Shown: positions 1,336-53,347, counted from the first letter of the stretch. The stretch: DNA of 64,000 nucleotides from an uncultured Clostridia bacterium (GCA_964562095.1 CAZLSH010000002.1:9597-73596); one strand, 5' to 3'. Made by a program: numbers and translations. The notes: generated by a model from the sequence alone, not told the origin.

Positions 1336-1456
1336 GTTGGAGAATTAAATTTATTCATACTTGGCATGACTATTATGAAATATGTTTATGCCCGATCCGA
1401 TGGTATATTACTGGGGAAGTGATGTCAAGGGCGTCGTCCCCAACGGAGGAGGCAAC

Positions 1457-8016: not shown

Positions 8017-8017
8017 A

Positions 8018-9400
8018 ATGGATAGCGGATTCATCGACCACGCCAGAATATTCTCCTGCCTGGATAGCGCCCGGCCGCCCGACCGCCGGGAAACAGCCGA
8101 CATCCTGGCCAGGGCGCGGCAGCTCAAGGGGCTCGACTTTGCCGAAGCGGCGCGGCTGCTGCTGCTCGAGGACGAGGAGAGCCTGGCCGAGATCTTCGCC
8201 GCCGCCCTGTTCGCCAAGAGCGAGATCTACGGCAAGCGCCTGGTCCTCTTCGCGCCGCTGTACGTGTCGAACCTGTGCAACAACGAGTGCCTCTACTGCG
8301 CCTTCCGCAAGAGCAACGACCGGATCACGCGCCGCACCCTCCGCCAGGAGGAGATCCGCCGCGAGACCGAGCGGCTGGTCGACCAGGGGCACAAGCGCGT
8401 GCTGCTGGTGTCGGGCGAGGGGCTGGGCGAGGCCGCCCTGGGCTATTCGCTGCAGGCCATCGAGACGATCTACTCGGTCAAGCGCGGCGACGGCGAGATC
8501 CGCCGTGTGAACATCAACGTCGCCGCCCTGCCGGTCGACGCCTACCGCCAGCTGAAGGCGGCCCGCGTCGGCACCTACCAGCTGTTCCAGGAGACCTACC
8601 ATTATGACACCTTTCGCCGCATGCACCCCAGCGGGCCCAAGGCCGACTATCTCTACCACCTGACGGCCATGGACCGCGCCATGCAGGGCGGCATTGACGA
8701 CGTCGGCGTCGGCGTCCTGTTCGGCCTCTACGACTACCGCTTCGAGGTCCTGGCCCTGCTGCAGCACATCCGCCACCTGGAGCAGGCCTTCGGCGTCGGC
8801 TGCCACACCATCTCGCTGCCGCGCATCGAGCCGGCCACCGGCTCCGACCTGTCGCTGCACCCGCCGCACGCCGTGTCCGACGCCGACTTCCGCAAGATCA
8901 TCGCCGTGCTGCGCCTGAGCGTGCCCTACACGGGCATGATCCTCTCCACCCGCGAGAACGCCGCCATGCGCCGCGAGGCCTTCTCGCTGGGCGTCTCGCA
9001 GATCAGCGCCGGCTCGCGCACCAACCCCGGCGGCTACTCCCACGGCGACAGCGGCGAACAGTTCTCCCTGGGCGACCACCGCGACCTGGAGGAGGTCGTC
9101 CGGGACATCGTCGGCCACGGCTACATCCCCTCGTTCTGCACCGGCTGCTACCGCCTGGGCCGCACCGGCGCCGACTTCATGGACCTGGCCAAGCCGGGGC
9201 TGATCAAGCTCTATTGCCTGCCCAACGCCATGACGACGTTCAAGGAGTACCTGGTCCATTACGCGTCCCCGGAGACGCGTGCGTCCGGCGAGGAGCTCAT
9301 CGAGAGCATGATGGCCGACATCCCGGATGCGGAGGTCCGCGGGACGACCCGCAATAACCTGGGGCGGATCGAGGCCGGCGCCAAGGACCTCTACCTGTAG
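8018..9400 (+). CDS. hydG: [FeFe]-hydrogenase maturase HydG (radical-SAM tyrosine lyase)
   Basis: Radical-SAM CNNECLYC motif, ThiH-like length of 460 aa, and a C-terminal CX2CX22C auxiliary-cluster motif (CTGC...22 residues...C). An AAGGAG RBS precedes it. Confidence 0.85.
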   Translation: MDSGFIDHARIFSCLDSARPPDRRETADILARARQLKGLDFAEAARLLLLEDEESLAEIFAAALFAKSEIYGKRLVLFAPLYVSNLCNNECLYCAFRKSNDRITRRTLRQEEIRRETERLVDQGHKRVLLVSGEGLGEAALGYSLQAIETIYSVKRGDGEIRRVNINVAALPVDAYRQLKAARVGTYQLFQETYHYDTFRRMHPSGPKADYLYHLTAMDRAMQGGIDDVGVGVLFGLYDYRFEVLALLQHIRHLEQAFGVGCHTISLPRIEPATGSDLSLHPPHAVSDADFRKIIAVLRLSVPYTGMILSTRENAAMRREAFSLGVSQISAGSRTNPGGYSHGDSGEQFSLGDHRDLEEVVRDIVGHGYIPSFCTGCYRLGRTGADFMDLAKPGLIKLYCLPNAMTTFKEYLVHYASPETRASGEELIESMMADIPDAEVRGTTRNNLGRIEAGAKDLYL

Positions 9401-10453
9401 ATGGACCTCCAGGAGCGCCTGCAGCGGCTGTATCGCGAGCCGAACCGCGGCGACCTGATCCATTTTCTTGCCACTCCCGATATGAACGAGGTCGGGTGTT
9501 TGTACGACTTCGCCGACCGCGTGCGTCGCGAGCATGTCGGCGACGCCGTTCACCTGCGGGCCATCGTCGAGTTCTCCAGCTTTTGCCGCAACGACTGCCT
9601 CTACTGCGGCCTGCGCCGCTCCAACCACGCCCGCCGCCGGCTGCGCATGCCTCTGGATGAGATCGTCGCCCAGTGCCGACGGGCGGAGACGCTCGGCTTT
9701 CGCACGGCAGTACTGCAGTCGGGCGAGGACCCGTTCTACGGCCGCGAGGCGATCGCCGGCCTGGTGCGCCGGGTGAAGGCGGAGACCGGCCTGGCCGTCA
9801 CCCTGGCGGTGGGGGAGAGGAGCGAGGAGGAGTACCGGGCCTTCTTCACGGCCGGAGCCGACCGCTACCTGCTCAAGCACGAGACGTCGGACCGCGAGCT
9901 CTACGAGAGGCTCGACCCGGGTCTGAGCCACGAGCGGCGCATCGGCTGCCTGCGGCTGCTGAAGCGCATCGGCTTCCAGACCGGCAGCGGCATCATGGTC
10001 GGCCTGCCGGGACAGAGCCTGGAAAGCATCGCCGACGATATCCTGCTGTTCCGCGACCTGGACCTCGACATGATCGGCTGCGGCCCGTTCATTCCGCACC
10101 CGGCGACGCCACTGGCAGCGGAGCCGCCGGGAAGCGAGGAACTGACCTACCGCGTGCTCGCCCTGGCGCGACTTGTCACCCGCGACACCCACATCCCGGC
10201 CACCACCGCCCTGGCGGTCACGGCCGGCGACGCCGGGCGCGCCAGCGCCCTGTGCCGCGGCGCCAACGTGGTCATGCCCAACATTACCCCCCAGCCCTGG
10301 CGCGGCGCCTACGAAATCTATCCCAGCAAGGGGCGGACGGAGGTCTTTGACCCGTCCCTGCTGGAGCGGCTGCGGCGGACGCTCTGCGAGCTGGGACGTT
10401 TCATTGCCGAGGACGCCGGCGAACGGGTAGGATTCCCCCATTCGATTTCTTGA
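9401..10453 (+). CDS. hydE: [FeFe]-hydrogenase maturase HydE (radical-SAM, biotin-synthase-like)
   Basis: Radical-SAM CRNDCLYC motif, a 350-aa BioB-like fold, and its start overlaps the hydG stop (TAGATG). Confidence 0.85.
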   Translation: MDLQERLQRLYREPNRGDLIHFLATPDMNEVGCLYDFADRVRREHVGDAVHLRAIVEFSSFCRNDCLYCGLRRSNHARRRLRMPLDEIVAQCRRAETLGFRTAVLQSGEDPFYGREAIAGLVRRVKAETGLAVTLAVGERSEEEYRAFFTAGADRYLLKHETSDRELYERLDPGLSHERRIGCLRLLKRIGFQTGSGIMVGLPGQSLESIADDILLFRDLDLDMIGCGPFIPHPATPLAAEPPGSEELTYRVLALARLVTRDTHIPATTALAVTAGDAGRASALCRGANVVMPNITPQPWRGAYEIYPSKGRTEVFDPSLLERLRRTLCELGRFIAEDAGERVGFPHSIS

Positions 10454-10619: not shown

Positions 10620-10695
10620 GAGCCAGTGATTCCCAAGCCGGAAGAAGAAAAATGTGGATTGTAAGTGAAAAAAATCGATGAAAGGAGAAAAAACC

Positions 10696-12048
10696 ATGGC
10701 TGAAAAAATTAGAAACCGCTGGCTGATCGCCATCATGGGGACCGTCCTGCAATTGGCTCTCGGCACAGTGTACGCCTGGAGTTACTTCCAGAAGCCGATC
10801 ATGACTTCTTTTGGCTGGTCCAATGTCACCGTCATGTGGATATTCAGCCTGTCGATCTGCTTCCTGGGTTTGGCCGCCGCCTGGGGCGGGGTGAACCTGG
10901 CGAAGATCGGACCGACCAAGTTGGCGATCACCGGGGCCATACTCTGGGGTTCCGGCTGGTTGATCGGAGCCTTGGCCATGTCCATGCAGAGCGTTATCCT
11001 CCTGTACATCGGCTATGGCGTGATCGGAGGCATCGGGCTCGGACTCGGCTATGTGACCCCGGTGGCCACGGCGGCCAAGTGGTTCCCGGACAAAAAGGGT
11101 TTTATCACCGGCATGGTTGTCATGGGATTCGGACTCGGCGCGCTGATCATGTCCAAGTTGATCGCCCCTGGGCTCATGTCCAGTTTCAACGGCATACTGA
11201 AGGGCATTCCCGCCGAGTCATTCGTTGACGGGAAACTGGTCGACTCATCCACGCAAGCCCTGCTGCAAGGCCAGCTGGTCAACGTTTTCATGTACGCGGG
11301 CATCATCTTGTTCATTATCGCCCTCTCTGCCGCCGTGTTCATGAAAAATCCTCCCGCCGGATACGTGCCGGCCGGGTTCACGCCTCCGGCTAAAGGCGCA
11401 GCCGCCCAGGGTGGTGAAGACAAGCTCACCATCAGAGGCTGCCTGACATCCAGTAAATTTTTCAGGATGTGGCTGATCTTCTTTTTGAATATTGCTGCCG
11501 GCATCATGTTCATCGGGCTGCAATCGCCGATGTTGCAGGATCTTTTGAAAAGGACAGGCTCGGCAATGGATGCCGCTGCCCTGGCAGCCGCCGGCGCCAC
11601 CTTGGTCGCCATCAGCTCCCTGTTCAATGGCATCGGAAGATTTTTCTGGGGTGGCCTCTCCGACAAGATCGGCAGGATCCAGGCGTTTCGCCTGATACTC
11701 GGAACGCAGTTGATCGTGTTTCTGGCGCTGATCGTCGTCAAAAATCCCTGGATATTCGGCATATTGGTATGTTATGTGCTCCTCTGCTACGGCGGCGGAT
11801 TCGGCACCATGCCTTCCTTCATCGGCGATATCTTTACCGCCAAGCTGATGCCGGTCGTGTATGGTACGGTTTTGACCGCCTGGTCGATGGCGGGGATCGT
11901 GGGACCGCAGATCGCTGCTTACATTAAGGACCATTATCAGGCGAATGCCCCGACGTATACTTTTGTAACCGGCGCCGCGCTGCTGGCCATCGGCGTGGCC
12001 ATCGCCTTCACCTTGAACAACCGCTCGCTGGCCGAAGAGCAAAAATAG
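10696..12048 (+). CDS. MFS transporter, oxalate/formate antiporter (OFA) family-like
   Basis: A 12-TM MFS profile with an OFA-like N-terminus (WLIAIMGTVLQLALGTVYAWSYF). An AAAGGAG RBS sits before the second ATG at 10696; the ORF-track start at 10678 includes the RBS. Confidence 0.75.
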   Translation: MAEKIRNRWLIAIMGTVLQLALGTVYAWSYFQKPIMTSFGWSNVTVMWIFSLSICFLGLAAAWGGVNLAKIGPTKLAITGAILWGSGWLIGALAMSMQSVILLYIGYGVIGGIGLGLGYVTPVATAAKWFPDKKGFITGMVVMGFGLGALIMSKLIAPGLMSSFNGILKGIPAESFVDGKLVDSSTQALLQGQLVNVFMYAGIILFIIALSAAVFMKNPPAGYVPAGFTPPAKGAAAQGGEDKLTIRGCLTSSKFFRMWLIFFLNIAAGIMFIGLQSPMLQDLLKRTGSAMDAAALAAAGATLVAISSLFNGIGRFFWGGLSDKIGRIQAFRLILGTQLIVFLALIVVKNPWIFGILVCYVLLCYGGGFGTMPSFIGDIFTAKLMPVVYGTVLTAWSMAGIVGPQIAAYIKDHYQANAPTYTFVTGAALLAIGVAIAFTLNNRSLAEEQK

Positions 12049-12076: not shown

Positions 12077-12118
12077 GCGGATATCCACGCTGGGCGGGGA
12101 TATCCGCTGTTTTTTTTT
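12077..12118 (+). terminator. Rho-independent terminator for the MFS gene
   Basis: A perfect 10-bp stem (GCGGATATCC ... GGATATCCGC) followed by TGTTTTTTTTT. Confidence 0.7.
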
Positions 12119-12177: not shown

Positions 12178-12945
12178 TCAGAAAGTCCTGACGCGTCCCA
12201 GCAGACGCAGCAGTCCGTCCAGGATCGTGTAGGGGTGGGGAGGACAGCCGGGGATATAGAGATCGACGGGAAGCATCTCGTCCACGCCGTGGTGGACGTC
12301 CGCGTGCCCGGCGAACATGCCAGCAGAAATGGCGCAAGCCCCGACGGCAATGACGATCTTCGGTGCCGGCGTGGCGTCATAGGTCTTGCGCAGCGCCAGC
12401 TCCATGTTGGCCGTCACCGGCCCGGTCACCAGCAAGCCGTCGGCGTGGCGCGGAGAGGCGACGAACTGAATGCCAAAGCGGGCCAGATCGAACACGATGG
12501 TATTGAGCACATTGATGTCGGCTTCGCAGGCGTTGCAGCCGCCGGCGCTGACCTGGCGCAGGCGCAGTGAGCGGCGGAACAGCCGCAGACGTTTGGGCTC
12601 CAGTGGCCGGGCATGAAGAAAGCAGGCATCTCCGCTGACGGCCAGGCCGCGTCTTTCGTTGGCGGCGAGGATGTATCCGGCGGTGAATGTGATCACCTGA
12701 TCGGGGCAATGGCGCGCGCAAGCGCCGCAAAAGATGCAGCGGCCCATATCGATGACCGCCGTGCCCTGCGCCTTATGGATTGCCTGTACCGGGCAAACCC
12801 GGATGCAGGCGCTGCAGCCGCTGGCGCATTTCCCGGCGGCGATCTTCGGTAAGCCCAGGAAGCGGTCCGGCAGGATAGCTGCCTGCTTCGGGTATTGCAC
12901 CGTGCGTTGACGCTGGGCGATCCTTGTTTTCAGAACATTCGCCAT
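12178..12945 (-). CDS. Fused 2x[4Fe-4S] ferredoxin (NuoI/HycF-like) and NuoB/HycG-like small subunit of an energy-converting hydrogenase-related complex
   Basis: The N-terminus has two Cys clusters (CASGCSACIRVCP, CIFCGACARHCP). The C-terminus has the NuoB/small-subunit cluster ligands GGCNACE, GACA, GCPP. Confidence 0.8.
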   Translation of the reverse strand: MANVLKTRIAQRQRTVQYPKQAAILPDRFLGLPKIAAGKCASGCSACIRVCPVQAIHKAQGTAVIDMGRCIFCGACARHCPDQVITFTAGYILAANERRGLAVSGDACFLHARPLEPKRLRLFRRSLRLRQVSAGGCNACEADINVLNTIVFDLARFGIQFVASPRHADGLLVTGPVTANMELALRKTYDATPAPKIVIAVGACAISAGMFAGHADVHHGVDEMLPVDLYIPGCPPHPYTILDGLLRLLGRVRTF

Positions 12946-12961
12946 GGTGAGCCTGCCTCAT

Positions 12962-14485
12962 TCATAGATCAAATCCACAGTATGACAAGTTGAAGCTCTT
13001 GTTGCAGAGCGGGAAATCGGAGATCGGTTGGCCGCGCATGGCCAGCGCCAGGCCGAACCAGTTGTGGAACGACGGGTCGACGATCTTGTAGCGCTGGAAA
13101 CGGCCGTTCTTGTCGGTGATGGCCACGTGGCAAATTTCTCCCCGCCAGCCTTCGACGAGCGCCACTGTGAGCGCCGAGGCTCTTGCCGGCAGGGGGCCGG
13201 CGGCGATCTCCTTGCCTTTCTGCGCCCTGAACGGCGTGTCCGTTCTGCCCAGATGTTCCAGCAGGAACGCGCAGGATGCCTGGACCTCGCGCCAGCGCAC
13301 ATGCGCTCGGCTGAACACATCGCCTGAATCATGGCTGCAGACCGGAATATGGGCGAAGCGGTAGTACCCATGGGCATGGTCCTGGCGCACGTCTTGAAAG
13401 CAATCGCAGGCGCGCAGCGCCGGGCCGACCAGACCGATGCTCTCCGCCGTTTCCCGCGCCAGCCGGCCTGTGCCCTCGAAACGGGCGAGGATGGAGGCGT
13501 CCTCCCAAAGAAGGCCGGTCGCGCCCAAGAAATCAGAGGTTGAGCCTTGAAGCTTTTTGGACAGCTCCGCTTTTCTTTTCTCATCCAGGGCGAATCCGCA
13601 ACCGCCGGGGACCACCAGGCCGCGGCCGAAGCGGTTGCCGCAGAGCACGGCGGTCATGTTCAGGAAATCACCGCGGATTCTGCCGCAATACGACATGGTG
13701 GGCAGAAAGCCAATGTCCCCGGCCAGCGCGCCCAGATCGCCGACATGGTTGGCGCACCGTTCCAGCTCCAATGCCAATGCCCGCACCATGCCGTCATGGG
13801 CAGAGATCTTGCAGCCGGCCAGTGATTCAACGACCTGGCAATAAGCGCTCATGTGGCCCACCGAGGTGTCGCCGGCGATCACGGCCATCTGAAAGGGCGA
13901 GACGGGGAAGGGCCCGCCACGCAGCGCGTTCTCGATACCGCGGTGCTGGTAGCCCAGTGATATCTCCAGGTGGAGGACCGTCTCCCCGTGGCATTGGAAG
14001 CGGAAGTGCCCCGGCTCGATGATCCCCGCGTGCACGGGGCCGACCGCCACTTCGTGGATCCCTTCGCCACGGACCCGGAAGTAGTCGATCCGGCCGATGG
14101 AGGAAGCCGGCCCTTGCTCCTTTGCCGCCGGCTGGGGAAAACGGACCGCCTTGAGCCAGGGATGGCCCTGGGGCCGCAGCCCGGTCTGCTCGCAGATCTC
14201 CCTTTCGAAGAGATGGACTTGGGGAAAACGGGGGGTCAGGGAGGGGAAATCCTTTTTCCTGGTTATGGTGGAGATGACGGAGAGGGAGCCATTGCGGTCG
14301 TCTGCGGCCACGGCGTACAGTTGGACCTTTTGGGCGTCGAGGCGGTCGCCGAAATAGGCGCAGACCCGGAATCCCCGGTCCAGCAGTACGGCCAGAGACT
14401 CGACGAAGTCGTCCAAGTCAAGGACGGGAACATCGGCCAATGGGATGACCTGGCCGTTGCCTATGCGAGGGATGGCGGCGCTCAT
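12962..14485 (-). CDS. NuoC-NuoD fused large subunit, group 4 hydrogenase / Ehr-like, lacking the NiFe-ligating cysteine motifs
   Basis: Only the 3-prime 1.5 kb of the listed 892-aa ORF looks protein-like; the real start is MSAAIPRIG at 14485. It has the NuoD/HycE signature GPVHAGIIEPGHFRF...HRGIE. Where HycE has RVCGICGFAH this protein reads VIAGDTSVGHMS, and its C-terminus is DFPLCNKSFNLSYCGFDL instead of DPCxxCxxR. It overlaps the next gene by 4 nt. Confidence 0.8.
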   Translation of the reverse strand: MSAAIPRIGNGQVIPLADVPVLDLDDFVESLAVLLDRGFRVCAYFGDRLDAQKVQLYAVAADDRNGSLSVISTITRKKDFPSLTPRFPQVHLFEREICEQTGLRPQGHPWLKAVRFPQPAAKEQGPASSIGRIDYFRVRGEGIHEVAVGPVHAGIIEPGHFRFQCHGETVLHLEISLGYQHRGIENALRGGPFPVSPFQMAVIAGDTSVGHMSAYCQVVESLAGCKISAHDGMVRALALELERCANHVGDLGALAGDIGFLPTMSYCGRIRGDFLNMTAVLCGNRFGRGLVVPGGCGFALDEKRKAELSKKLQGSTSDFLGATGLLWEDASILARFEGTGRLARETAESIGLVGPALRACDCFQDVRQDHAHGYYRFAHIPVCSHDSGDVFSRAHVRWREVQASCAFLLEHLGRTDTPFRAQKGKEIAAGPLPARASALTVALVEGWRGEICHVAITDKNGRFQRYKIVDPSFHNWFGLALAMRGQPISDFPLCNKSFNLSYCGFDL

Positions 14486-15969
14486 CGGCCGATCCCCCTT
14501 TCCACCGCGGCTGCCGCGTCCCGCAAAAAGGCGGAGAAAGGCTCGGGAAGCCATATTCCCAGCAGCAGCAGCGCTGCCGCCAGGCCCAGGACGATCAGGA
14601 TATCGGGCAACCGGGGCTTTGCGGCCGCAGGCAGCGCGCCGCTGCCGCCGCCGAAGGAAACAGCCATGGCGTTTTTCAGGGCGCCGAAAAAAACGGCCAG
14701 GACGCAGAAAAGGAATAGCCCGACGATAAAGTATCGCCCCTGGAAAAAGGCCTGCTTGACGATCAGGAATTCGCTGAGGAAGATCGAGAAGGGCGCCACG
14801 CCGATCAACGCCAGGATGGATAGGAAGAAAGCCCCGCCCCAGAGAGGCACGCGCTCGCCGGCGGCGCTGATCCGCCGCATGTCTCTGGTCCCGTAATGGA
14901 CGCTGATATGGCCGGCGGCAAAGAAGGAGAGGACCTTGGCGAACGAATGGTTGGCGGTGTGCAGCAGGGCCGCGAACGTGCCGATGCCGCCGAGTCCCAG
15001 TCCCACCGCGATGATGCCCATGTGCTCCACGCTGCAGTAGGCCAGGAAGCGCTTGATGTCGCTCTGGATGGGAATGAAGATCGCCGCGAAAAGCAGCGAG
15101 GTGAACCCGAAGATCAGGATGATGGCCTGGGCCTGCCCGTCCCCGCCCATCGCTGCCTTGGCGATCGGCAGGTAGCGCATGATGCAAAAGAGGGCGCAGT
15201 TGAGCATCACCCCGGAAAACGCCGCCGAAACCGGCGTCGGGGCCTGGCTGTGGGCGTCGGGGAGCCAGGTGTGCATGGGCGCCAGCCCGGCCTTGGTCCC
15301 GAAGCCGACCACGATGAAAACGAAGGCGAAGAGCATGAGTTGCGGGTCGATCTGGTCCGCATGCCGCGCCAGCCGGCTGAAAAGGAACTGCGAGCCCGCC
15401 CCGGGCAGGTTCTTGGCCGCGGCGACCGTCAGGATCGTGCCCATGAAGGCGAAGACGATCCCCACCGAGCAAATGAGCAGGTACTTCCACATGGCTTCGA
15501 TGGAAAGGGGGTCGGTTTCGGAAATGATCAGGAACGCCGAGACCAGGGTCGTCGCTTCCAGGGCCACCCACATGACCCCGATGTGGTTGGACATCAGGAC
15601 CAGGAGCAGCATGGCCTGGAACGCCTGCCAGAGCATGCAATAGCGCTTGACGGCGGTGCGGCCCAGGTTGCCGGCCTGGATCCCGTGCTTGAAGTAACCG
15701 CCGGCATAGATGGCGGTGATCAGGAAGACCAGGTCGACGAGAACGATATGGTACAGGGAGAGGGAATCGATGAGCAGGATGCGGCCGTAATGGGAATAGG
15801 CCCCGCCGGCGAAAAAACGCAAGGCCAGCGGCAGCGTCAGGACGGCTGTGGCCAGGGAGGTGACGACCGGGATGCGCAGGGTGCGTCCGGCGTCGGTCAT
15901 GGGCAGGCAGGCCAGGATGCCGCCGCCGAGAACGGCGAAAATGACGGGAATGAAAATCGCCGTCGCCAT
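14482..15969 (-). CDS. NuoM/NuoN/HyfF/MnhD-like proton-translocating antiporter subunit
   Basis: GLAPMHTWLPDAH and AYCSVEHMG motifs in a ~14-TM, 495-aa protein. Confidence 0.8.
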   Translation of the reverse strand: MATAIFIPVIFAVLGGGILACLPMTDAGRTLRIPVVTSLATAVLTLPLALRFFAGGAYSHYGRILLIDSLSLYHIVLVDLVFLITAIYAGGYFKHGIQAGNLGRTAVKRYCMLWQAFQAMLLLVLMSNHIGVMWVALEATTLVSAFLIISETDPLSIEAMWKYLLICSVGIVFAFMGTILTVAAAKNLPGAGSQFLFSRLARHADQIDPQLMLFAFVFIVVGFGTKAGLAPMHTWLPDAHSQAPTPVSAAFSGVMLNCALFCIMRYLPIAKAAMGGDGQAQAIILIFGFTSLLFAAIFIPIQSDIKRFLAYCSVEHMGIIAVGLGLGGIGTFAALLHTANHSFAKVLSFFAAGHISVHYGTRDMRRISAAGERVPLWGGAFFLSILALIGVAPFSIFLSEFLIVKQAFFQGRYFIVGLFLFCVLAVFFGALKNAMAVSFGGGSGALPAAAKPRLPDILIVLGLAAALLLLGIWLPEPFSAFLRDAAAAVERGIGR

Positions 15970-16616
15970 CAGCGCCTCAACTTTTCCAGCGAGCCGCTGC
16001 TGATGGTGTCGTACTCGCTATGGATGTGATGGACGACCATAACCATGATGAACACGCCGACGAGCATGTCCAGCAGAATGCCCATTTCCACGAAAAGGGG
16101 CTGGAAGGCGGCGATGGAGAGGCCCAGGATGAAGCCTGAGTTTTCGAAAACCAGGTAACCGATGATTTGACTGACCACGTTGCGCCGCGCCACGATGAGA
16201 AAAAGTCCGATAAACGCCGTGGCGATGGCGGTGGAGGCGTGAAACGGCGATATCGTGACCGAGTAGAACGGAATTTTTCTGAGCACATAGAAGGCGAAGG
16301 CCGAGGTCAGGATGCCGAAGGTGACCGACAGCGAATAGCCGATGGCGGGGTCGACCTCGCGCACGACGCGCACGTCCCGGATCGCCCGGCGTAGATAGCG
16401 GGGGATCAGAATGCCCTTGATGGCCATGCTTAAGAAGACGAGGAGGAACATGTGGATCCTCTCCGCCGGATTCGGCAGGAGCAGGGGCAGAACGCTTAAA
16501 AGCAGCCCCTGGGCAGCGACGCCGCGGATCATGCCCGAAAGCCGGCTCGTAGCCAGCATATACAGGTTGCAAACGACGATGGCGAGTGAAACCCAGGCCA
16601 GCGGATTGAATCTCAT
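15969..16616 (-). CDS. HyfE-like small membrane subunit (hydrogenase-4 component E family)
   Basis: A 215-aa polytopic membrane protein with a HyfE-like profile, positioned between the NuoH-like and NuoM/N-like genes. Confidence 0.65.
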   Translation of the reverse strand: MRFNPLAWVSLAIVVCNLYMLATSRLSGMIRGVAAQGLLLSVLPLLLPNPAERIHMFLLVFLSMAIKGILIPRYLRRAIRDVRVVREVDPAIGYSLSVTFGILTSAFAFYVLRKIPFYSVTISPFHASTAIATAFIGLFLIVARRNVVSQIIGYLVFENSGFILGLSIAAFQPLFVEMGILLDMLVGVFIMVMVVHHIHSEYDTISSGSLEKLRR

Positions 16617-16623
16617 TTTCCGC

Positions 16624-17541
16624 TTACCATGCGAGTGCCCCGGTCACGCTGATAAAAAAACCCAGCAAGGCGATCACGCCCGCGGCGAATAGAAGTTGCG
16701 GCACCTTGAGCAGCGGCACCCGGGCCATGGACGACTCCACAACGCCCACGATGGCGGCGATCAGGGCGATCAGCGCCACGAGCACGATCGTCTGCAGCAG
16801 TGGCGACGAGCTCGAAACAGGGAGCAAAATCCTCGCCAAAACCAGCGAAAACAACCAGAGCTTGATCGCCGCCGCATATTCCAGCAGCGCCAGCCCCGGG
16901 CCGCTGTTATCCAGGATCATCGCTTCGTGGATCATGGTGAGTTCCAGGTGGGTGTTCGGGTCATCGAATGGGATACGGGCATTCTCGGCCATGAGAACGA
17001 TGAACAGCGGCAGCGCCGAGAGCAGCACGGTGATGGAATCGGCGACCATGGGGGCGGAGAGAGCCGTCATGATGCTGCCGGTGCCATTCGCACGCATGAC
17101 GTTGAGCAGGCAGACGAACAGGACGGGCTCGGCGAGCGCCGAAAAAAAAGCCTCGCGGCTCGCCCCCATGCCGGCGAATGACGAACCGGTGTCGAGGGCG
17201 GACAGGATCAGGAAGAATCTTGCCAGGCCCAGGAGATACAGCAACATGACCACATCGCCGGTGAACAGCGGCTTCGGGCTCAGCATCAGGAAGGGCACAA
17301 AACAGGTTGCGGCGAGGGTAGCGGTGAAGATCACGACCGGGGCCATGCGGAACAGCCACGAGGTCGTCATGCTGGTTACGGTGCCTTTGTGCAGGAGGCG
17401 AAAAAGATCATAGTAGGCTTGGAGGAGCGGTTGCCCTTTGCGCCCGGCGAACATGGCCTTGACGCGGTTGATGATCCCGGCCAGCAGCGGCGAGAAGGCC
17501 AGTGCTGCGGCCGGGGAGATGAGAAAGGCGCTGATGTTCAT
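16624..17541 (-). CDS. NuoH/HycD/HyfC-like membrane subunit
   Basis: The N-terminal motif RVKAMFAGRKGQPLLQ matches the HycD/NuoH family; the protein is 305 aa with 8 TM. Confidence 0.8.
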   Translation of the reverse strand: MNISAFLISPAAALAFSPLLAGIINRVKAMFAGRKGQPLLQAYYDLFRLLHKGTVTSMTTSWLFRMAPVVIFTATLAATCFVPFLMLSPKPLFTGDVVMLLYLLGLARFFLILSALDTGSSFAGMGASREAFFSALAEPVLFVCLLNVMRANGTGSIMTALSAPMVADSITVLLSALPLFIVLMAENARIPFDDPNTHLELTMIHEAMILDNSGPGLALLEYAAAIKLWLFSLVLARILLPVSSSSPLLQTIVLVALIALIAAIVGVVESSMARVPLLKVPQLLFAAGVIALLGFFISVTGALAW

Positions 17542-19523
17542 AGGAAGAACTTCCAGATGATCAGACAGAAAACGGTCAGTGCGATGTAGAACACATATTG
17601 CCCGGTTTTGCCACTCTGGAACCAGCGCAGCAATGAGAACGCCCTGTCCAGGGATCTGACCAGTGGAGAGAACAGCCGGGTCAGGAACCAGTCATCCACG
17701 CCCGCATGAAACGACCAGTTGTCCATGGGGAATAATTCCCTGTCGTTCCGGAGCTGCTCGTGCCCATGCAGGGGAAGCTGGAAATGCTTGATGAGCGGAG
17801 CGGCGAAAGAAGAGGCCGTGTATTGCATGGTCGGGCCGGGTTGGCTGTAGCCGCAATCCCACGTGACGGCGCCCGTCACGGCCCGCCCCCTGCGCTTCAT
17901 GATCGAGCGCCAGGCGTAGAAAAAAACGGCGGCCAATGCCAGCAGGCCCAGGATGATGCTCACGGTCAAAGTCAATGGGAAGAGCGTCCGGGCCGCCGCA
18001 TCGGCAGGGCCGAAAAACATCAGGACCGGTCGAATTAAAACCGGGAGCATGGCCATACTGAATAGGCCTATGAGCAGGCATAGCGCGGCCAGCAAGCCCA
18101 TGGACCAGAGCATGGGAGCCGGAGCTTCTGTTGGCGTGAGCTCTGTTTTCGTGCGTGCTTCACCAAGGAAAACGATACCGAAAACTTTCGTGAAACAGGC
18201 CACGGCCAGACCGCCGATGAGCGCCAGCGAGATGATGACGGCAAGGCTCAGCAGCGCCAGCAGCGGCTGCGGAGCGTGCACGGCGCCGCTGATGCCCGCG
18301 ACGTAGATGAACAACTCGCTGATAAAGCCATTGAAGAACGGCAGGCCGCAGATGGCGATGGCGCCGACAAAGAACAAACTGCCTGTGCGGGGCATTTTTT
18401 TCAACAGGCCGCCCAGGCGATCGATCTCGCCGCTCCCCGTTTGCCGGATCACCGCCCCGGCCCCAAGGAACAGCAGTCCCTTGAATAGGGCATGATTTAC
18501 GACATGCAGCAGCCCGCCTGCGAAACCGAAAAGCGCGATGGTGCTGGAGCCGAAGGCCACCCCGGTCATGCCGATGCCGATGCCCAGGAGAATGATGCCG
18601 ATATTTTCAACGCTGTGATAGGCAAGCAATCTCTTGATATCATGCTGCCCGAGGGCGAAGAGCACTCCCAGTATGCCGGATATCGCTCCCAGGGCAATCA
18701 GGAGCATGCCCCACCAGGAGTGAAATGGCGCAATGAACGTCAACAACCGCATCAGCCCATATATGCCCATCTTGATCATGATCCCGGACATGAGCGCCGA
18801 TACATGGCTCGGGGCGGCCGGGTGCGCGAGGGGAAGCCAGACATGAAAGGGAATGAACCCCGCTTTCAAGCCGAATGCGATCAGGGCGAGGATGAATACG
18901 GCATCGGCCCTGGCGGCCGAGAAATGAATGCCGGTCCAGGCGTGAAAATCGAACGAGCCGGCTGACGCGGAAAGCTGGAGAAAAAGGACCAGCAGAAATG
19001 CCGTGCCTACGTGCGCCGTGACGAAATAGGTCCATCCGGCCCGGATCGCATCGGGGTTCTTTTTGTCGTTGATGACCAGGAAAAACGATGAGAGCGACAT
19101 GATCTCCCAGGCCAGGATGAACAGGACAGCGTTCCTGGCCAGGAGCACCATGACCATCCCGGAAACCAGCAAGCTGAAATAGAACCAATGGGAGCGTCCG
19201 GCGGGATGACTCCCGAAGTAACGCGTCCCGTAAAGTGAACTGGCTGCCGCCAGGATCAGCAGCGGGATCATGAATATGGCGCTCAAGGGGTCGATGCCCG
19301 CCCGCAGGCTGGCGAAGGGCAGTTGCCAGTTCAGCCAGCTGGAAATGATATTCGCGTCAATGCGGCGGAAAATCCAGAAAAGATATGCCAGGGTGATGAG
19401 GCTGCCGGCGGAAACAATGATGGCGGTCAGGTCCTTTAGCCGGGAGCCATGCTTGAACGGGTACAGGCTGAATACGCCAGCTGCACTGACAACGAAGACA
19501 TAAAAAATCAAGGGGTTCAGCAT
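17538..19523 (-). CDS. NuoL/HyfB/HycC/MnhA-like antiporter subunit
   Basis: LAWEIMSLSS, FHVWLPLAHPAAPSHVSALMSG and LAYHSVENIG motifs; 661 aa. Confidence 0.85.
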   Translation of the reverse strand: MLNPLIFYVFVVSAAGVFSLYPFKHGSRLKDLTAIIVSAGSLITLAYLFWIFRRIDANIISSWLNWQLPFASLRAGIDPLSAIFMIPLLILAAASSLYGTRYFGSHPAGRSHWFYFSLLVSGMVMVLLARNAVLFILAWEIMSLSSFFLVINDKKNPDAIRAGWTYFVTAHVGTAFLLVLFLQLSASAGSFDFHAWTGIHFSAARADAVFILALIAFGLKAGFIPFHVWLPLAHPAAPSHVSALMSGIMIKMGIYGLMRLLTFIAPFHSWWGMLLIALGAISGILGVLFALGQHDIKRLLAYHSVENIGIILLGIGIGMTGVAFGSSTIALFGFAGGLLHVVNHALFKGLLFLGAGAVIRQTGSGEIDRLGGLLKKMPRTGSLFFVGAIAICGLPFFNGFISELFIYVAGISGAVHAPQPLLALLSLAVIISLALIGGLAVACFTKVFGIVFLGEARTKTELTPTEAPAPMLWSMGLLAALCLLIGLFSMAMLPVLIRPVLMFFGPADAAARTLFPLTLTVSIILGLLALAAVFFYAWRSIMKRRGRAVTGAVTWDCGYSQPGPTMQYTASSFAAPLIKHFQLPLHGHEQLRNDRELFPMDNWSFHAGVDDWFLTRLFSPLVRSLDRAFSLLRWFQSGKTGQYVFYIALTVFCLIIWKFFL

Positions 19524-19530
19524 ACGGCGA

Positions 19531-20286
19531 TCATGGTTTGACGGACTCTTTGCGCAAAGTACTCTCGAAGGCGGCCAGGGTATCGAGGATCAGCTGGCGG
19601 TTGGATGTCCCCTTGAGCACGCAGCGGATGGCGGGCTGGTGCAGGGCATAGCTGAGCCTGGACAGAATGTGAAGGTGGGAACGGACCGTGTGGGTGATGA
19701 TGGTGAAGACGGTATCAACCGCCTTGCTGTCCAGGGCGTTGAAGTCGATGGGCTGTTCAAGAAAACACAGCGCCAGGACCGGTTTTTTCACATGAAATAT
19801 GATCGGGTTTCTGACGTGGGGGATGGCGATGCCGTCGCCGATGGCGGTGGTGCCGAGGTTCTCCCGCGCCAGTAGAGCTCCGATCAGGAATTCCCTGTCC
19901 ACATCGTCGGGGAGGTGCATGATGTTGACGATCGACCGGAGCACGCTCTCCTTGTCCGTGCCGGGGATGCGATAATGGATGCCTCCGGCGTTGAGCGACT
20001 CGGTCAGCGCCGGCATTTCATCGTCGGTCTCGAAAGGTTCATCGAATATCGCGGGGGAGAGCTTTATTTTTCTGGCCGTGGCCCATTCCAGCAATTCCAC
20101 CCTGTTGAAGCGATAACCTTCACCGATCTTGTAGGCTGGGATCTCTTTTTTCGCTATCCAGCGGTAGATTGTTTTATCCGAAACCGCCAACATCTGGGCA
20201 ACTTCCTTTAATCCAATCATCATGGAAAAATTCAACTCCTTGCTTGAGAGTGCGGTTGGTATACTATAGAAAAATGTATAATCCAT
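19531..20286 (-). CDS. Regulator: excisionase/MerR-type HTH fused to a PTS EIIA(Fru/Ntr)-type domain
   Basis: N-terminal HTH_17-like helix (LKEVAQMLAVSDKTIYRWIAKKEIPAYKIGEGYRFNRVELLEWA). The C-terminal PTS_EIIA_2 domain carries the phosphorylatable His motif GIAIPH. It lies 8 nt upstream of the NuoL-like gene on the same strand. The start could instead be the MM pair at 20218-20223. Confidence 0.7.
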   Translation of the reverse strand: MDYTFFYSIPTALSSKELNFSMMIGLKEVAQMLAVSDKTIYRWIAKKEIPAYKIGEGYRFNRVELLEWATARKIKLSPAIFDEPFETDDEMPALTESLNAGGIHYRIPGTDKESVLRSIVNIMHLPDDVDREFLIGALLARENLGTTAIGDGIAIPHVRNPIIFHVKKPVLALCFLEQPIDFNALDSKAVDTVFTIITHTVRSHLHILSRLSYALHQPAIRCVLKGTSNRQLILDTLAAFESTLRKESVKP

Positions 20287-20347
20287 TTAGGCAAGAAAGT
20301 CAAGGCGTGTCCATGAATGTCCATTATCGTTGGCGCGGATGCCAATG

Positions 20348-20470
20348 AGTGATTTGAAATGTCTGGATATGGTTTTTCCTGAAAGCGTTGGCCACATCGC
20401 CGGCGGCGGCTTCTTCGTCGCCACCCTGTACTGGCTGGCTTACGTGCGCAAGCCCAAGAAGGCCGCCTAG
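20348..20470 (+). CDS. Candidate small hydrophobic peptide (ILNVWIWFFLKALATSPGGGFFVATLYWLAYVRKPKKAA), GTG/TTG start uncertain
   Basis: The frame is open from a GTG at 20348 to a TAG at 20468-20470. It has a TM-like composition, is followed by a strong terminator, and has no clear SD. Confidence 0.2.
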   Translation, partial: SDLKCLDMVFPESVGHIAGGGFFVATLYWLAYVRKPKKAA

Positions 20471-20634: not shown

Positions 20635-21888
20635 TCACTCGATCTGCGCGGAGACGTACTCGGTCAGCTTCCCCAGGCAGTTCACGTAACTGCCGTACTC
20701 GTTGTCGTACCAGCCCATGATCTTGGCGTGGGTGACGGGGATATTGACCTCGCGCATGCCACTGACGCCGATGGCCGCCAGCACGTCCTGGGGAACCTGC
20801 AGGAAGCCGGTCCGGGTGTGGATCTCCTGGCCCTCGATCACGACGGCGGCGGGAAAGCCCAGCAGGTCCTGGGACACGTTCTGCTTGGTGGAAAAGACGA
20901 GCAGGCCCTTCTGCGCCCCGTCCGCGGCCGAGCGGTAGATTCCCTTGATGTGCTCGGTGTTGATGAAGGGCATGCCGTTCTCGTTCAGGCGGGAGCTGAA
21001 GGTGATGTTGAGGGCGATCAGCGAGACGGACGGCGTGGGGATGCGGATGGAATCGGCCATGAAGCCGAAGCGGCTCGTCTGCGGGATCACCTTCTCCAGC
21101 GTCTTGGCGGCGCCGGTCGAGGAGAGGATGATGTTGTTCAGGACCGAGCGGTTCTTGCGCAGGTCCGAGGCGCCGGCGGCGGGAACGGAGTCCAGGACGC
21201 TCTGGGTATTGGTGGCGGCGTGGACGGTGGACATGGAGGCCGTGAGGATGTGGCTGGTTTCGCGGTCTTCCAGCAACGGCTTGATCATGTGGGCCAGGCC
21301 GGTCGTCGTGCAGCTGGCCGCGGAGACGATGTTGTGGCGCATGGGGTTGAAGCTGGCGTGGTTGATGCCGTAGATCAGGGTGGGGCAGGCCTCGGCGTCG
21401 GTCCAGGACGCTCTCTTGGACTTGAAGGGGGCGCTGACGATGACCTTCTGGGCGCCGGCCGCCAGGTGCCCGGCGACGCTGCCCCGGGCGTCACTGGCGG
21501 GGACGCCGGGATCCAGGAACTTGCCGGTGCAGTCGACGACGACACGCACCCCCTCTTCCTTCCAGCGCAGGTTCTGGGGGTTCCGCTCCCGGTTCAGGAA
21601 CTTGACCCGGAACCCGTCGATCGCCAGCCAGCCGTTGGGCCCGTCGACGACCTCGATGGCGCACGTCCGGCCCGAGTGGCCGTGCAGGAAGTGGTCCAGC
21701 GAGCCGTAGGTCGAGTCCGAGCGGATCGCCTGGATGAAATCGTCGACGCTCTTGCCCACGTCCCGGCCCACGTTGGCCACGATGCCGTCGAACTTGCGGG
21801 AGACCAGGTGATACCACAGGGTCAGCTTGCCGATGCGGCCCAAGCCGTTGACCCCCAGCAGCTTCTTGTCATGGATGCTTGCGTTCAC
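20635..21888 (-). CDS. gap: Glyceraldehyde-3-phosphate dehydrogenase family protein, long form (~417 aa) with internal insertions
   Basis: NAD-binding GVNGLGRIGK, catalytic ASCTTTGLAH and C-terminal WYDNEYGSYVN motifs. A GTG start at 21886-21888 is preceded by AAGGAGAAGG; the N-terminal 85 aa of the listed ORF look like non-coding read-through. There is an extra ~80 aa relative to canonical GAPDH. Confidence 0.7.
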   Translation of the reverse strand: MNASIHDKKLLGVNGLGRIGKLTLWYHLVSRKFDGIVANVGRDVGKSVDDFIQAIRSDSTYGSLDHFLHGHSGRTCAIEVVDGPNGWLAIDGFRVKFLNRERNPQNLRWKEEGVRVVVDCTGKFLDPGVPASDARGSVAGHLAAGAQKVIVSAPFKSKRASWTDAEACPTLIYGINHASFNPMRHNIVSAASCTTTGLAHMIKPLLEDRETSHILTASMSTVHAATNTQSVLDSVPAAGASDLRKNRSVLNNIILSSTGAAKTLEKVIPQTSRFGFMADSIRIPTPSVSLIALNITFSSRLNENGMPFINTEHIKGIYRSAADGAQKGLLVFSTKQNVSQDLLGFPAAVVIEGQEIHTRTGFLQVPQDVLAAIGVSGMREVNIPVTHAKIMGWYDNEYGSYVNCLGKLTEYVSAQIE

Positions 21889-21911
21889 GATGCCTTCTCC
21901 TTCATGGTATT

Positions 21912-24900
21912 TTACAATGCCTGGATCTGGATGGGATAATTCCCTTGGTAGACGATGCCCTTGTGGCCGTCGATGGCGATCGGGTCGCAGGACAGAAAGA
22001 CAGTGCCGTTGATGACGCAGCGCTTGTCGCCCTCGGACACGAGCATGTCGTCGCAATTGACGACGCAGGTCTTGCCCAGCGTGGCCGCGGTAACGGCGGC
22101 GTGGGAGGTCGCGCCGCCCTTGCTGGTCAGCAGTCCCTCGCACTCGATGATCATCTCGATGTCCTCGGGCACGGTGTCGGGGCGGACCAGGACGGCCTTC
22201 TGCCCCGGGGCGCGCCGGCGCAGGGCCGCCAGGTCGTCGCGGTCGAAGACGACGGCCCCGTTCAGCACGCGGTTGCCGATGCCGATGCCGCAGCCGACCC
22301 GCTTGCGCTTCTTCTCGGGCGTGGCGAACGTTTCGATCTCGGTCTGCTTGACGATGACCATGTCCCGCGTTTGCAGGATGTACAGGTCCTCAGGCTCGGC
22401 CTTTTCGAACGTGAACTCGATTTCCTGGTGGCCGAAGCCGTGGACCTCGATGAGCTCGTTGGCGATCCGCTTGAGACGGTCGTAGATCCTCGGAAATGCG
22501 GTCTCGAGCGAGAACGGGCTCTTGCGGTAGTAGGTCCGCCGCTGGTTTTCGCTGATCGGCAGGGTGTTGACCAGGCCGGCGACGATGTCTTCGCCCTGGC
22601 TGAGGAAGGTGAAATCGCCGGCCAGGTTGACGCCGGGAACATCGTCGTTCACGTCATGGGTGAACAGCACCCCGGAGCCCGATTCGTTGTGCAGGTTGCC
22701 GAAGATCATCTGCTGCACGATGACGGCCGTGCCCCACTCGGGGGCGATCTGCATGTGGTTGCGGTAGAAGCGGGCCCGCGGCGTGTCCCAGGAGTTGAAC
22801 ACGGAGATGACGGCCTCCTTGATCTGCAGGAAGGGGTCGCTCGCGAACTGGATGCCGTGGTCGCGCAGCAGCCCCCGGTAGGCGAAGGCGATCTCGCGCA
22901 TGACCGGCGGCGGGAAATCGATCTTGCGCGCCACGTGGCGCGCGCGCTTGAAGCTGTCCATGATCTGGTCGAACTGGTTCCGTTCCAGGCCGTAGGCCAT
23001 GCCCCACGTCTGCAGCAGGCGGCGGTAGCAGTCCCACGACGTCCAGCCGAAGTTGGGCTGGCGGCTGAGCTCCTCGGTGATCTCGTCGTTCAGCCCCACG
23101 TTGAGGAAGGTGTTCATGGCGCCGGGCATGGAGATGGCGGCCCCGGAACGGACGCTCAGCAGCAGGGGCTGGCGGGGATCGCCGAAGCGCAGGCCCGAGA
23201 TGCGCTCGAGCTCCGAGACGTGGCGGCGGATCAGGGCGTCGATCTCCGCGTTCAGCGACGGGATCTTCAGGATCGCCTGCACCCGGCGGAAGACCTCGGT
23301 GGTAAGCACGAAGCCGGGCGGTACCGGAAAGCGGTTCAAGTAGAGCTTCTTCAGGTAATAGGCCTTCGAGCCCAGGAACACCTGGTTGTCCATCGCCGGC
23401 GTGCCTTCATAGAGGGGGCTGATCACCAGGTCGGGGTCGTAGGCCATGATGCTCTGGATCTCCGGGTCGGAGAGGTTGCCGGCAAACTTGCGCAGGTTGT
23501 TCAGGACCTCGCCGATGAACTGGTCCAGGGTCTGGAGCAGAAACGCCGAGGAGAGGAGCTCGCGGTAGAAGATCTCCGCCTTCTGGCAGACGACCTTGCG
23601 GTCGGCGTCTGGCACGTACTGGGGAATGATGACGTTCAGGAGACGGTCGTAGGGGCGGATGAAAAACTTGTTGATGATTTCCTTGACGCTGGTCTCCATG
23701 AACTGAAAAATGTTGATGTATTGGCGGATGGTGAAGCTGCCCGAGGTGAGGCTGTACAGGAGCATCTTCAGGTTGGCGTCGAATCCCTGGTCGTAGATCC
23801 CGTCCAGGCTCAGCCCCTCCTGCAGCAACTGGATGACCGCGTAGATGTTCTTCAGGGTCTTGGCGGTGAAATAGTCAGTGTGGATCCCGGCCATGACGTC
23901 GGCGACCAGGACGGCGGCGATGCGCTCGAGCCGGAAGGTCAGCCCCAGGGCCTCGAACTTGGGCTCGCGGTACTCGCCGTACATGGAGGGGATGCCGAAG
24001 GCGACATGCCGCTTGTAGTAGATGTTTTCCCAGCCCTCGCTCGGCTGCGGGTCGAAGAGGATGGCGTTCAGCTTGCCCATGAACTGGTAAATGAGCTTCA
24101 GGGCCTCCACGCTCCGGTTGGCGGCCAGGGCGGCCTCCAGCCGCTGGCGGTCCTCGGCGGCGATGAAGGCGTGCCGCACCAGCAAGCGGCCGATGTCATC
24201 GGTCTCAAAGTGGTATTTTTCCTTCAGCAGCTGGTGCAGCTCGACGATCAGGGCCACGCGCCTGGCGTCGCTGCCGCCGCCCTGGGCCAGCGCGTCCAGG
24301 CTCCGCGCGCGCTCCTTGGCCTGCCGCGCCAGCCAGTCGTCCACGGAGAGGGAGCCCTCCGCCAGCAGCCCGGACAGGACCTGGTGCACCCCCCGCACCC
24401 ACGGCCCGGCGGGTTCAATCGTCTCCAGGACGTTCTGGGGGACGAGGCCCTTGAGGCGCTCCGCGTCCAGGTCGGCCCAGAAGCGGATGATCTCCGCCGT
24501 GAGCTGGATGTGCGTGTTGTTGCCCTCGGCGTGGACCTGCTTGCGCAAAAAATGGATCAGCTTGTCGTTGCGGTGGGTGATCTCGTCGAGCCTCGTCGTC
24601 ACGTCGCGCAGGCGCCCCTCGGCCCCGATCTCGTTAAAATACACCGGGAAGATCCGGGTCAGCTGCTTGATCTGCTTGTAAATGGGCGACACGGTGGCGT
24701 TCAGCAGCCGGGTGACGTCCTTTTGGAACAGGTCGGTGTCGAAGATGAAGATGCCGCCGACGCGCAGGTTGATGATCAGCGCCGACAGCAGGTTCTTCAT
24801 CGTCTCTGGGTCGTACTCGATCAGCTCCAGCCAGACGCGGATGTTCTTGACGTGGTTGGGATTGACGTTCAGCGACCACTCGTCGGTCAGGCGCGCCGCG

Positions 24901-30147: not shown

Positions 30148-30296
30148 GGCGTTTCCGGCAATCCGGGGGACATCGAGGAGGAGATCGCCTGTCCGCCGGG
30201 GCTGAAGACAATAAGACGTTTCCTCTAGGGGAATGGTTTCCATTCCGCCTCCGAAAAACAACTTTTAATGAAAACATTATAGGATCATTAATAATT

Positions 30297-33306: not shown

Positions 33307-34707
<1,401 letters not shown>

Positions 34708-42026: not shown

Positions 42027-42050
42027 GATGCCTCCTCTGGATGTTTCGTC

Positions 42051-53333: not shown

Positions 53334-53347
53334 TTCCGCCCTTATCT

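Follow-up and report, generated by a model that had tools for sequence, protein, structure and literature searches.

The 64,000-nucleotide stretch of DNA from an uncultured Clostridia bacterium analyzed here (GCA_964562095.1 CAZLSH010000002.1:9597-73596, referred to below as the window) carries at positions 12178-20286, on the minus strand, a seven-gene cluster that is, by its subunit composition, a further member of the known and very widespread Ehr (energy-converting hydrogenase-related) family. As read from the sequence, the cluster is probably, though by no means certainly, a self-contained and horizontally mobile cassette, in which a six-subunit Ehr membrane complex is encoded together with its own transcription factor and in which the complex would act as a ferredoxin-linked, ion-translocating oxidoreductase. 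The elements of the cassette, in the direction of transcription, are as follows.

20308-20323, minus strand: putative operator, the tandem direct repeat TGGACA-TTCA-TGGACA; sole perfect copy in the window.
20275-20303, minus strand: candidate sigma-70-like promoter TTGACT-N17-TATACA, read off the sequence and not listed by a stricter consensus scan.
19531-20223, minus strand: regulator, 230 aa (its longest open reading frame, ORF, reaches 20286); Pfam HTH_17 4e-16 and PTS_EIIA_2 2.9e-23.
17538-19523, minus strand: EhrA, HyfB/HycC/NuoL-like antiporter-type subunit, 661 aa; Proton_antipo_M; NCBIfam HyfB 5.6e-170, 567 bits.
16624-17541, minus strand: EhrB, HycD/NuoH-like membrane subunit that joins the peripheral arm to the membrane arm, 305 aa; Pfam NADHdh 3.5e-28; tblastn HycD 4e-30.
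15969-16616, minus strand: EhrC, HyfE-like, its C-terminal half resembling NuoK, 215 aa; full-length match to NCBIfam HyfE, 9.6e-22; Pfam Oxidored_q2 2.9e-5.
14482-15969, minus strand: EhrD, HyfF/NuoM/N-like antiporter-type subunit, 495 aa; Proton_antipo_M; NCBIfam HyfF 2.2e-116, 390 bits.
12962-14485, minus strand: EhrL, NuoC-NuoD fused large subunit lacking the NiFe site, 507 aa; Pfam Complex1_30kDa and Complex1_49kDa.
12178-12945, minus strand: EhrS, fusion of a NuoI/HycF-like and a NuoB/HycG-like domain, 255 aa; Pfam Oxidored_q6 1.8e-29 and Fer4; NCBIfam NuoI 1e-16 and HycF 8e-16.

The ORF listing gives junctions of +7, -4, +7, -1, -4, and +16 nucleotides between the seven same-direction genes, and the E-values of their domain assignments (Pfam, NCBIfam) range from 1e-21 to 1e-170, far beyond chance, which confirms the row of tightly packed genes and the products that an earlier note on this DNA had described. 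Two of its statements hold in part: the small subunit is indeed a fusion, but the partner of its NuoB domain is NuoI/HycF-like rather than a generic ferredoxin, and the regulator does stand at the head of the operon, but with an ORF that is probably 63 nucleotides shorter than had been proposed. Both the alignment of the regulator family and the ENA gene call begin at M22 of the longest ORF, which places the gene at 19531-20223, and the candidate promoter falls inside the 5' extension of that ORF, which also argues for the later start; ATG 20223, giving 230 residues, is thus the most likely initiation codon. The ehrL start is ATG 14485, nested within a longer, spurious TTG-initiated ORF. RNA elements near the operon were not found by Rfam and tRNA scans.

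Ehr, reportedly defined in Coppi 2005 and Marreiros 2013, is said to consist of NuoL-, NuoH-, HyfE-, and NuoM/N-like subunits with a large and a small subunit and to have no NiFe CxxC pairs. The set and order of the genes ehrA-B-C-D-L-S, the missing NiFe cysteines, and the identity of 56–58% to the Geobacter-type large subunit all agree with the assignment to Ehr made in the earlier note; this identity was found for Geobacter hydrogenophilus (L043), Geobacteraceae metagenome-assembled genomes (MAGs), and Geomobilimonas luticola (P0115), all with the same gene order, in a comparison of which G. sulfurreducens itself was not part. It was in the latter species that the cluster was first named (GSU0739-0745; PMC7894505, PMC8691401), and its subunits are expressed there at levels varying with the electron donor, being more abundant in formate-grown cells (PMC7894505). 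Surveys describe the same combination of a NuoC-D fusion, a NuoI-B fusion, HyfB, HyfF, and a NuoH homologue as Ehr of unknown function (PMC6349859 and its Supplementary Note 4; PMC10284858; PMC4758237). The Geobacter system is therefore alike in subunit set, gene order, absent NiFe cysteines, and function unknown, but differs in that the Geobacter-type cluster lacks an HTH-EIIA gene and has an IclR-family gene between ehrL and ehrS, as observed in G. hydrogenophilus (L043, 11482-12318, plus strand) and in a Desulfuromonadales MAG (L026), a swap of regulators within one cassette; the window represents the majority architecture, with the HTH-EIIA gene at the head.

EhrL has more than 8000 database homologues at E <= 1e-10, and 737 clusters at 50% identity were counted at E <= 1e-30, with relatives in the genomes of at least 590 species. 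The hosts come for the most part from anoxic sediment or groundwater, and among their phyla are Desulfobacterota, Verrucomicrobiota, Planctomycetota, Acidobacteriota, Spirochaetota, Fibrobacterota, Ignavibacteria, Zixibacteria, Latescibacterota, and others. The nearest relatives of the present cluster are found in Syntrophobacterales and Fibrobacterota MAGs, and the cassette is no taxonomic marker.

The large subunit was aligned with E. coli HycE, HyfG, and NuoCD and with 119 database relatives of 54–100% identity. The four nickel ligands of HycE, C241, C244, C531, and C534, align with A204, T207, S501, and G504 of EhrL and are replaced in every one of the 119 relatives, the residues at these positions being Ala in 110, Thr in 99, and Ser and Gly in all; the alignments with the E. 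coli enzymes and with the relatives thus agree with the earlier reading of a catalytic subunit devoid of nickel-binding cysteines. EhrL terminates at L507, opposite R537, the last residue of mature HycE, so that there is no maturation peptide, and no member of the Hyp or HycI families was detected among the scanned ORFs of the window. The fold is that of HycE/NuoCD, with HycE being the best solved relative both by sequence (1.5e-36) and by fold (7Z0S_E, TM-score 0.86); E. coli NuoCD reaches a TM-score of 0.83 against the same AlphaFold2 model, a confident one with a pLDDT of 90.7.

The residues that line the former active site in the residue mapping are E157, A204-G-D206-T207, H211, N246, H247, D257, R448, N499, S501, and G504. 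The surroundings of the HycE active site have been described to include a β1-β2 Glu, a canopy Arg, a proton path of His, Arg, and Glu, and a canopy Asp (PMC9474812), and EhrL keeps most of these invariantly, as E157, R448, and H247/R358/E400, respectively. D206, which lies between the two former N-terminal cysteine positions, is an invariant Asp, and D257 corresponds to an Asp of complex I (Nqo4 D139, present also in E. coli NuoCD) where HycE has Phe. Across 99 nearly full-length sequences, each standing for a 50%-identity cluster and reaching down to 34% identity, the shared features are an Ile-Glu pair in the loop, [A/S/C]-G-D-[T/S], H211, H247, D257, R448, S501, G504, and the C-terminal Leu; of these nearest cluster representatives, 98 carry xGD[T/S]...NSxGL, and the hydrogenase cysteines CxxC...CxxC occur in a single one. 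By these alignments, a conserved polar site occupies the place of the NiFe pocket and is distinct both from a NiFe site and from the quinone site of complex I.

The family has cysteines of its own: C165, C267, C282, and C452 are present in 118–119 of the 119 close relatives, and C216, C494, and C503 in 93–95%, the latter three being lost independently of one another. The idea that they form a new metal or Fe-S site was rejected, as members of the wider Ehr set keep the pocket signature but have F/Y/L, T/S, or V/I/A at the four near-invariant positions, where HycE has V/F/T/I. These cysteines probably occupy buried core positions.

The remaining subunits give the picture of a complete electron wire and membrane arm. 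All 12 cluster cysteines of EhrS (40/44/47/51, 70/73/76/80, and 137/140/204/234) are conserved in 76 homologues, and the subunit is on this basis predicted to bear three [4Fe-4S] clusters, two in the NuoI/HycF-like domain and a proximal one in the NuoB/HycG-like domain, where the motif is of the hydrogenase type (Cys137-x2-Cys140 with Cys204 and Cys234) and not the tandem CC of complex I. In EhrA, the Glu140 of transmembrane helix (TM) 5, Lys220 of TM7, His340, His344, and Lys348 of TM8, and Glu403 of TM12 are kept in 64 of 65 family members, and EhrD conserves the equivalent TM5 Glu, TM7 Lys, and TM12 Glu of antiporter-like subunits as Glu138, Lys226, and Glu400; the TM7 Lys is absent from E. 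coli HycC. Also conserved are the NuoK-like Glu158 and Glu177 of EhrC and the acidic motifs that EhrB has in common with HycD/HyfC; it is through acidic residues of these two subunits that the arms are connected. Judged by these residues, EhrA and EhrD are intact pump modules, and the three-cluster wire and the proton path are likewise intact. About 18 of 80 related loci (e.g. L010, L014, L020, L034, L037, L038, L054, L060, L072, L073, and L079) have two tandem EhrA (HyfB-like) genes behind the regulator, which makes seven subunits in this variant, three of them antiporter-like modules.

Profile searches against canonical complex I, on which the earlier note had let its assignment depend, point the other way: for each of the subunits, the E. 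coli Hyc/Hyf proteins outscore those of Nuo (148 versus 77 bits for EhrL, 249 versus 83 for EhrD, and 203 versus 88 for EhrA), EhrB matches HycD and not NuoH, the Nuo models remain far below their curated cutoffs (e.g. NuoD 144 versus 360 bits and NuoH 35 versus 305) except for the broad NuoB subfamily NF005012 (124 versus 116), and there are no further Nuo-like genes in the window. With the E. coli formate hydrogenlyase enzymes Hyd-3 and Hyd-4 (HycCDEFG and HyfBCDEFGHI; PDB 7Z0S), Ehr has in common the NuoC-NuoD fusion, the HyfB/C/E/F-type membrane arm, and the CxxC proximal motif, and, in the case of HycE, also the canopy Arg, the β1-β2 Glu, and the His/Arg/Glu proton path. It differs from HycE in the change of CGIC to AGDT and of DPCYSC to NLSYCG, in the canopy Asp529 being Asn, and in the lack of the C-terminal maturation peptide, and from the hydrogenases as a whole in the fusion of HycF with HycG and the lack of a HycB/FdhF input module and of Hyp/HycI genes. 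Complex I (NuoB, CD, H, I, K, L, M, and N) shares the fold and modular plan, the Asp257 equivalent, and the full antiporter-like Glu/Lys/His set, whereas Ehr is without the quinone His/Tyr, the tandem-Cys N2 motif, NuoEFG, and separate NuoA/J subunits.

The first gene of the cassette encodes a protein with a MerR/excisionase-like winged helix-turn-helix (HTH) of the HTH_17 type at its N-terminus and a PtsN-like EIIA domain at its C-terminus; among solved structures, PtsN comes closest to the latter by sequence as well as by fold. Consistent with the proposal that the complex is headed by its own regulator gene, a gene of this kind lies directly upstream of ehrA and on the same strand in 55 of the 61 loci with enough upstream DNA, spread over many phyla and mostly at a distance of -24 to +46 nucleotides. 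Its identity to the window protein across loci (41–77%) is at least that of EhrC and EhrD, and all three regulator homologues sampled from the database (57–63% identity) head the same seven-gene cassette; the family as a whole has about 4700 members, all carrying a generic phosphotransferase system (PTS) IIA annotation. The predicted phospho-acceptor His136, in the motif GDGIAIPH, is invariant in 49 homologues. PtsN (EIIA-Ntr) shares the EIIA fold and the GIAIPH phospho-histidine motif, but here the domain is fused with an HTH in one 230-residue protein dedicated to ehr. The HTH itself resembles that of BldC, a MerR-like HTH protein without an effector domain that binds direct repeats head-to-tail (PMC5859096); the winged helix of the HTH_17 type and the direct-repeat target are similar, a likeness by family type only, with no phmmer match. 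As a separate observation, in one related locus (L091, 12102-12986, minus strand) a gene for a PTS Enzyme-I-like protein (PEP-utilisers_N, PEP-utilizers, and PEP-utilizers_C domains) lies convergent with, and just downstream of, the regulator-ehr cassette, and its product may be the phosphodonor of the EIIA domain.

The TGGACA tandem repeat lies immediately upstream of the candidate promoter, the -35 hexamer of which, TTGACT, forms a third unit in 10-bp phase with the repeats. When TGGACA-N4-TGGACA was sought with at most 2 mismatches of 12 in the regulator-upstream regions of 57 loci from other species, it was found in 30, across many phyla, as compared to a mean of 1.6 and a maximum of 5 of 57 in dinucleotide shuffles and to 18 of 1120 random windows; most of the copies are positioned 37–103 nucleotides before the start codon, and two of the 30 at about -170 to -180. 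Since direct repeats are the target of effector-less MerR-type HTH proteins such as BldC, the TGGACA repeat is a plausible operator of the HTH-EIIA protein, and the finding that both the HTH-EIIA gene and a putative DNA operator accompany the Ehr cassette across many phyla seems to be new. In the searchable literature, in which the founding Ehr paper was not included, so that priority is not excluded, no characterised member of the HTH-EIIA architecture and no tie of it to Ehr was found, and neither were the HTH-EIIA gene upstream of ehrA, the TGGACA repeat, or the polar pocket signature. A small hydrophobic ORF of 33–41 residues, also called as a gene in ENA, lies at about 20369-20470 on the opposite (plus) strand, between a glyceraldehyde-3-phosphate dehydrogenase (GAPDH)-like gene and the ehr promoter.

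Beyond the regulator, the cassette has no constant company. In the window it adjoins, as the earlier note had stated and profile scores confirm, an [FeFe] hydrogenase of group A6 (4832-6640, plus strand; 820 bits versus a cutoff of 765) with the maturases HydF, HydG, and HydE (6769-10453, plus strand; all above cutoff). The transporter convergent with ehrS (10678-12048, plus strand), which had been taken to be of the oxalate/formate-antiporter type, does belong to the OFA family of the major facilitator superfamily (MFS) but fails the cutoffs of the oxalate/formate antiporter models and passes only that of the L-lactate transporter SfMCT (334 versus 320 bits). None of these genes, nor the GAPDH-like and pyruvate phosphate dikinase (PPDK)-like genes on the other side, adjoins the cassette in any of the 80 loci of other species, and clustering of the flanking ORFs of these loci gave no conserved electron-input module or partner (formate dehydrogenase, hydrogenase, maturase, or transporter), no family recurring in more than 7 loci. 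The role in formate or H2 metabolism that had been suggested from context is thus not borne out, with neighbours that do not recur and a transporter best matching the L-lactate type; the sole experimental pointer to it in the literature is the raised abundance of Ehr subunits in G. sulfurreducens grown on formate (PMC7894505). Likewise, the link between formate dehydrogenase and Ehr made in PMC6349859 is unsupported for the clade examined. By its flanks, the cassette is self-contained and would need no dedicated partner enzyme.

In the mechanism envisaged for this cassette, a low-potential one-electron carrier, most likely ferredoxin (cf. the NuoI-like EchF of Ech hydrogenase), would dock on the NuoI-like domain of EhrS, from where the three clusters would conduct electrons to a substrate in the polar pocket where EhrL, EhrS, and EhrB meet (E157, D206, H211, D257, R448, and N499). 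The redox and protonation step would drive translocation of H+ or Na+ via EhrB-C-D-A, and the complex could possibly also run in reverse, with the ion-motive force being used to produce reduced ferredoxin. The acceptor would be neither protons by way of a NiFe site nor quinone bound in the manner of complex I, the candidates being menaquinone in a different binding mode or a small compound, of sulfur or otherwise polar. The HTH of the regulator would bind TGGACA-N4-TGGACA next to the -35 element, probably setting expression, and phosphorylation of His136 by a PTS(Ntr)-type phosphorelay would switch the PtsN-like EIIA domain, which would tie the synthesis of Ehr to the phosphoenolpyruvate (PEP)/pyruvate ratio or to the carbon/nitrogen status of the cell.

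It has to be noted that several points weigh against this interpretation. The donor, acceptor, ion, and direction of Ehr are all taken from homology. The canopy Asp, described as strictly conserved (PMC9474812), is Asn499 in 118 of the 119 EhrL relatives, and the positions of the quinone-binding His and Tyr of NuoD (Tyr273 of E. coli NuoCD) are taken by I156 and G205, which do not vary within the same set; given these changes, the chemistry of the pocket may differ from that of both the hydrogenase and the complex I relatives. The phosphorelay is assumed, there being no gene for the PTS(Ntr) Enzyme I or NPr in the window. The operator motif was derived after the fact from the very sequences in which it was counted, and a good copy is absent from 27 of the 57 loci. 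Ehr is also present in MAGs of the Treponemataceae and Victivallales, a point that counts where the acceptor is held to be a quinone. These lineages are mostly fermentative. Ehr occurs, furthermore, in Margulisbacteria that are reported to lack quinone synthesis (PMC6349859), and its presence in all these lineages argues against quinone as the universal acceptor.

The strongest competing explanation, which is possible but rather doubtful, is that Ehr acts as a ferredoxin:menaquinone oxidoreductase, built like a minimal complex I with no NADH module and pumping on the large energy span between ferredoxin and menaquinone. The loss of the NiFe site, Asp257 with its counterparts in Nqo4 and E. coli NuoCD where HycE has Phe, and the two to three antiporter-like modules would all suit such an enzyme, and the lack of a conserved partner would fit with its use of universal donors and acceptors. 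Many of the host lineages (Geobacter, Desulfobacterota, and Acidobacteriota) are menaquinone users, which also counts in its favour. A passage of PMC4758237, citing Marreiros 2013, moreover proposes Ehr as an intermediate towards complex I. Set against this are the invariant I156 and G205 in place of the residues that hold the quinone headgroup, the hydrogenase-type CxxC instead of the tandem CC in the NuoB domain, the polar character of the pocket (D206, E157, R448, and N499), and the occurrence of Ehr in the mostly fermentative lineages and the Margulisbacteria named above.

An unlikely reading is that the proximal [4Fe-4S] cluster is exposed and directly reduces sulfane-sulfur or another small soluble acceptor, with coupling to ion pumping, in the way of the MBS/Mbx complex of Pyrococcus furiosus (PDB 6U8Y). 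The principle would be the same, as MBS is likewise a NiFe-less descendant of the group 4 hydrogenases and a presumed ferredoxin-using ion pump; MbsL is a detectable homologue of EhrL (3e-12), the polar pocket with its proton path is kept, and the hosts come mostly from anoxic sediment or groundwater. However, MbsL matches EhrL much less well than other solved relatives do, at 49 bits as compared to 129 for HycE, 99 for MbhL, and 85 for Nqo4, and MBS is an archaeal complex of 13 subunits with an Mrp module (Mrp-type MbsA-H), whereas Ehr has six Hyf-type subunits; no sulfur-metabolism gene is conserved in the flanks of the 80 loci. That the cluster encodes a true [NiFe] hydrogenase of group 4 (Hyf- or 4f-like) that evolves H2 and has odd ligands, or a degenerate, nonfunctional copy of one, is highly improbable: although the membrane subunits are closest to Hyf, the canopy Arg and β1-β2 Glu are kept, and seven cysteines are conserved in the close family, all four nickel ligands are replaced throughout the relatives and the cysteine pairs appear in just one distant representative, neither a C-terminal extension for protease maturation nor hyp genes among the scanned window ORFs were found, the family cysteines give way to hydrophobic residues across the wider Ehr set, which makes a part in metal binding unlikely, and a pseudogene is excluded by strong purifying conservation over many phyla, with 140 EhrL positions at least 98% conserved.

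The reading preferred here, that of a self-regulated cassette for a ferredoxin-linked ion pump, can be extended to a bolder and decidedly tentative form, in which the HTH-EIIA protein would be an activator that relays a PTS(Ntr) signal to the TGGACA repeats of a mobile module and the invariant Asp/Glu/Arg/Asn pocket would carry out a third, so far undescribed ferredoxin-linked reaction of the complex I superfamily. If this were true, an example would be reverse electron flow giving reduced ferredoxin for pyruvate synthesis at low PEP. Few uncharacterised members of the complex I/group 4 hydrogenase superfamily are as widespread as Ehr, which is routinely included, with no reaction known for it, when the metabolism of uncultured bacteria is reconstructed. 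The signature [A/S/C]-G-D-[T/S], E157, R448, N499, and a terminal NSxGL-COOH separates it from hydrogenases and complex I, and the conserved PtsN-like regulator and its operator predict the condition that would induce it, namely the PEP/pyruvate or carbon/nitrogen status. The locus itself does not reveal the substrate; what the regulator, the operator, and the pocket signature provide is a function that is more amenable to testing.

The convergent ehrS and MFS genes are separated by the following element.

12083-12118, no strand assigned: hairpin GCGGATATCC...GGATATCCGC, with a T-tail on the plus strand only; a site scan places a terminator-like site at 12093-12108 (plus strand) inside it.

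On the far side of the transporter and maturases, the group A6 enzyme is of the type termed "NADH-dependent" [FeFe] hydrogenase, with no NuoE/F-like gene adjoining, and directly upstream of it lie genes for an L-glutamate gamma-semialdehyde dehydrogenase and an L-piperidine-6-carboxylate dehydrogenase of proline/lysine catabolism (1382-4671, plus strand). Long ORFs of 430–670 residues with no Pfam match at 1e-5 occur at 34963-36258, 41619-43127, 45401-46978, 51321-54781, and 59453-61318, some of which may be spurious in a window of 63% G+C. Two tandem paralogous regulators with Reg_prop β-propeller repeats, Y_Y_Y, and a LuxR/GerE HTH are encoded at 27385-30261 and 30420-33146, both on the minus strand. 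Upstream of the cassette, a 1357-residue protein (21912-25985, minus strand) is PPDK-like only in its C-terminal ~500 residues, which hold PPDK_N and the mobile phospho-His domain; a PEP/pyruvate-binding domain is absent, and the N-terminal ~860 residues match no family. Its gene is flanked by two GAPDH paralogues (20635-22143 and 25982-26989, minus strand), one of them with an N-terminal extension or an overcalled start, and with an enolase gene at 33316-34707 these gluconeogenic, PEP-related genes adjoin the PTS-type regulator.

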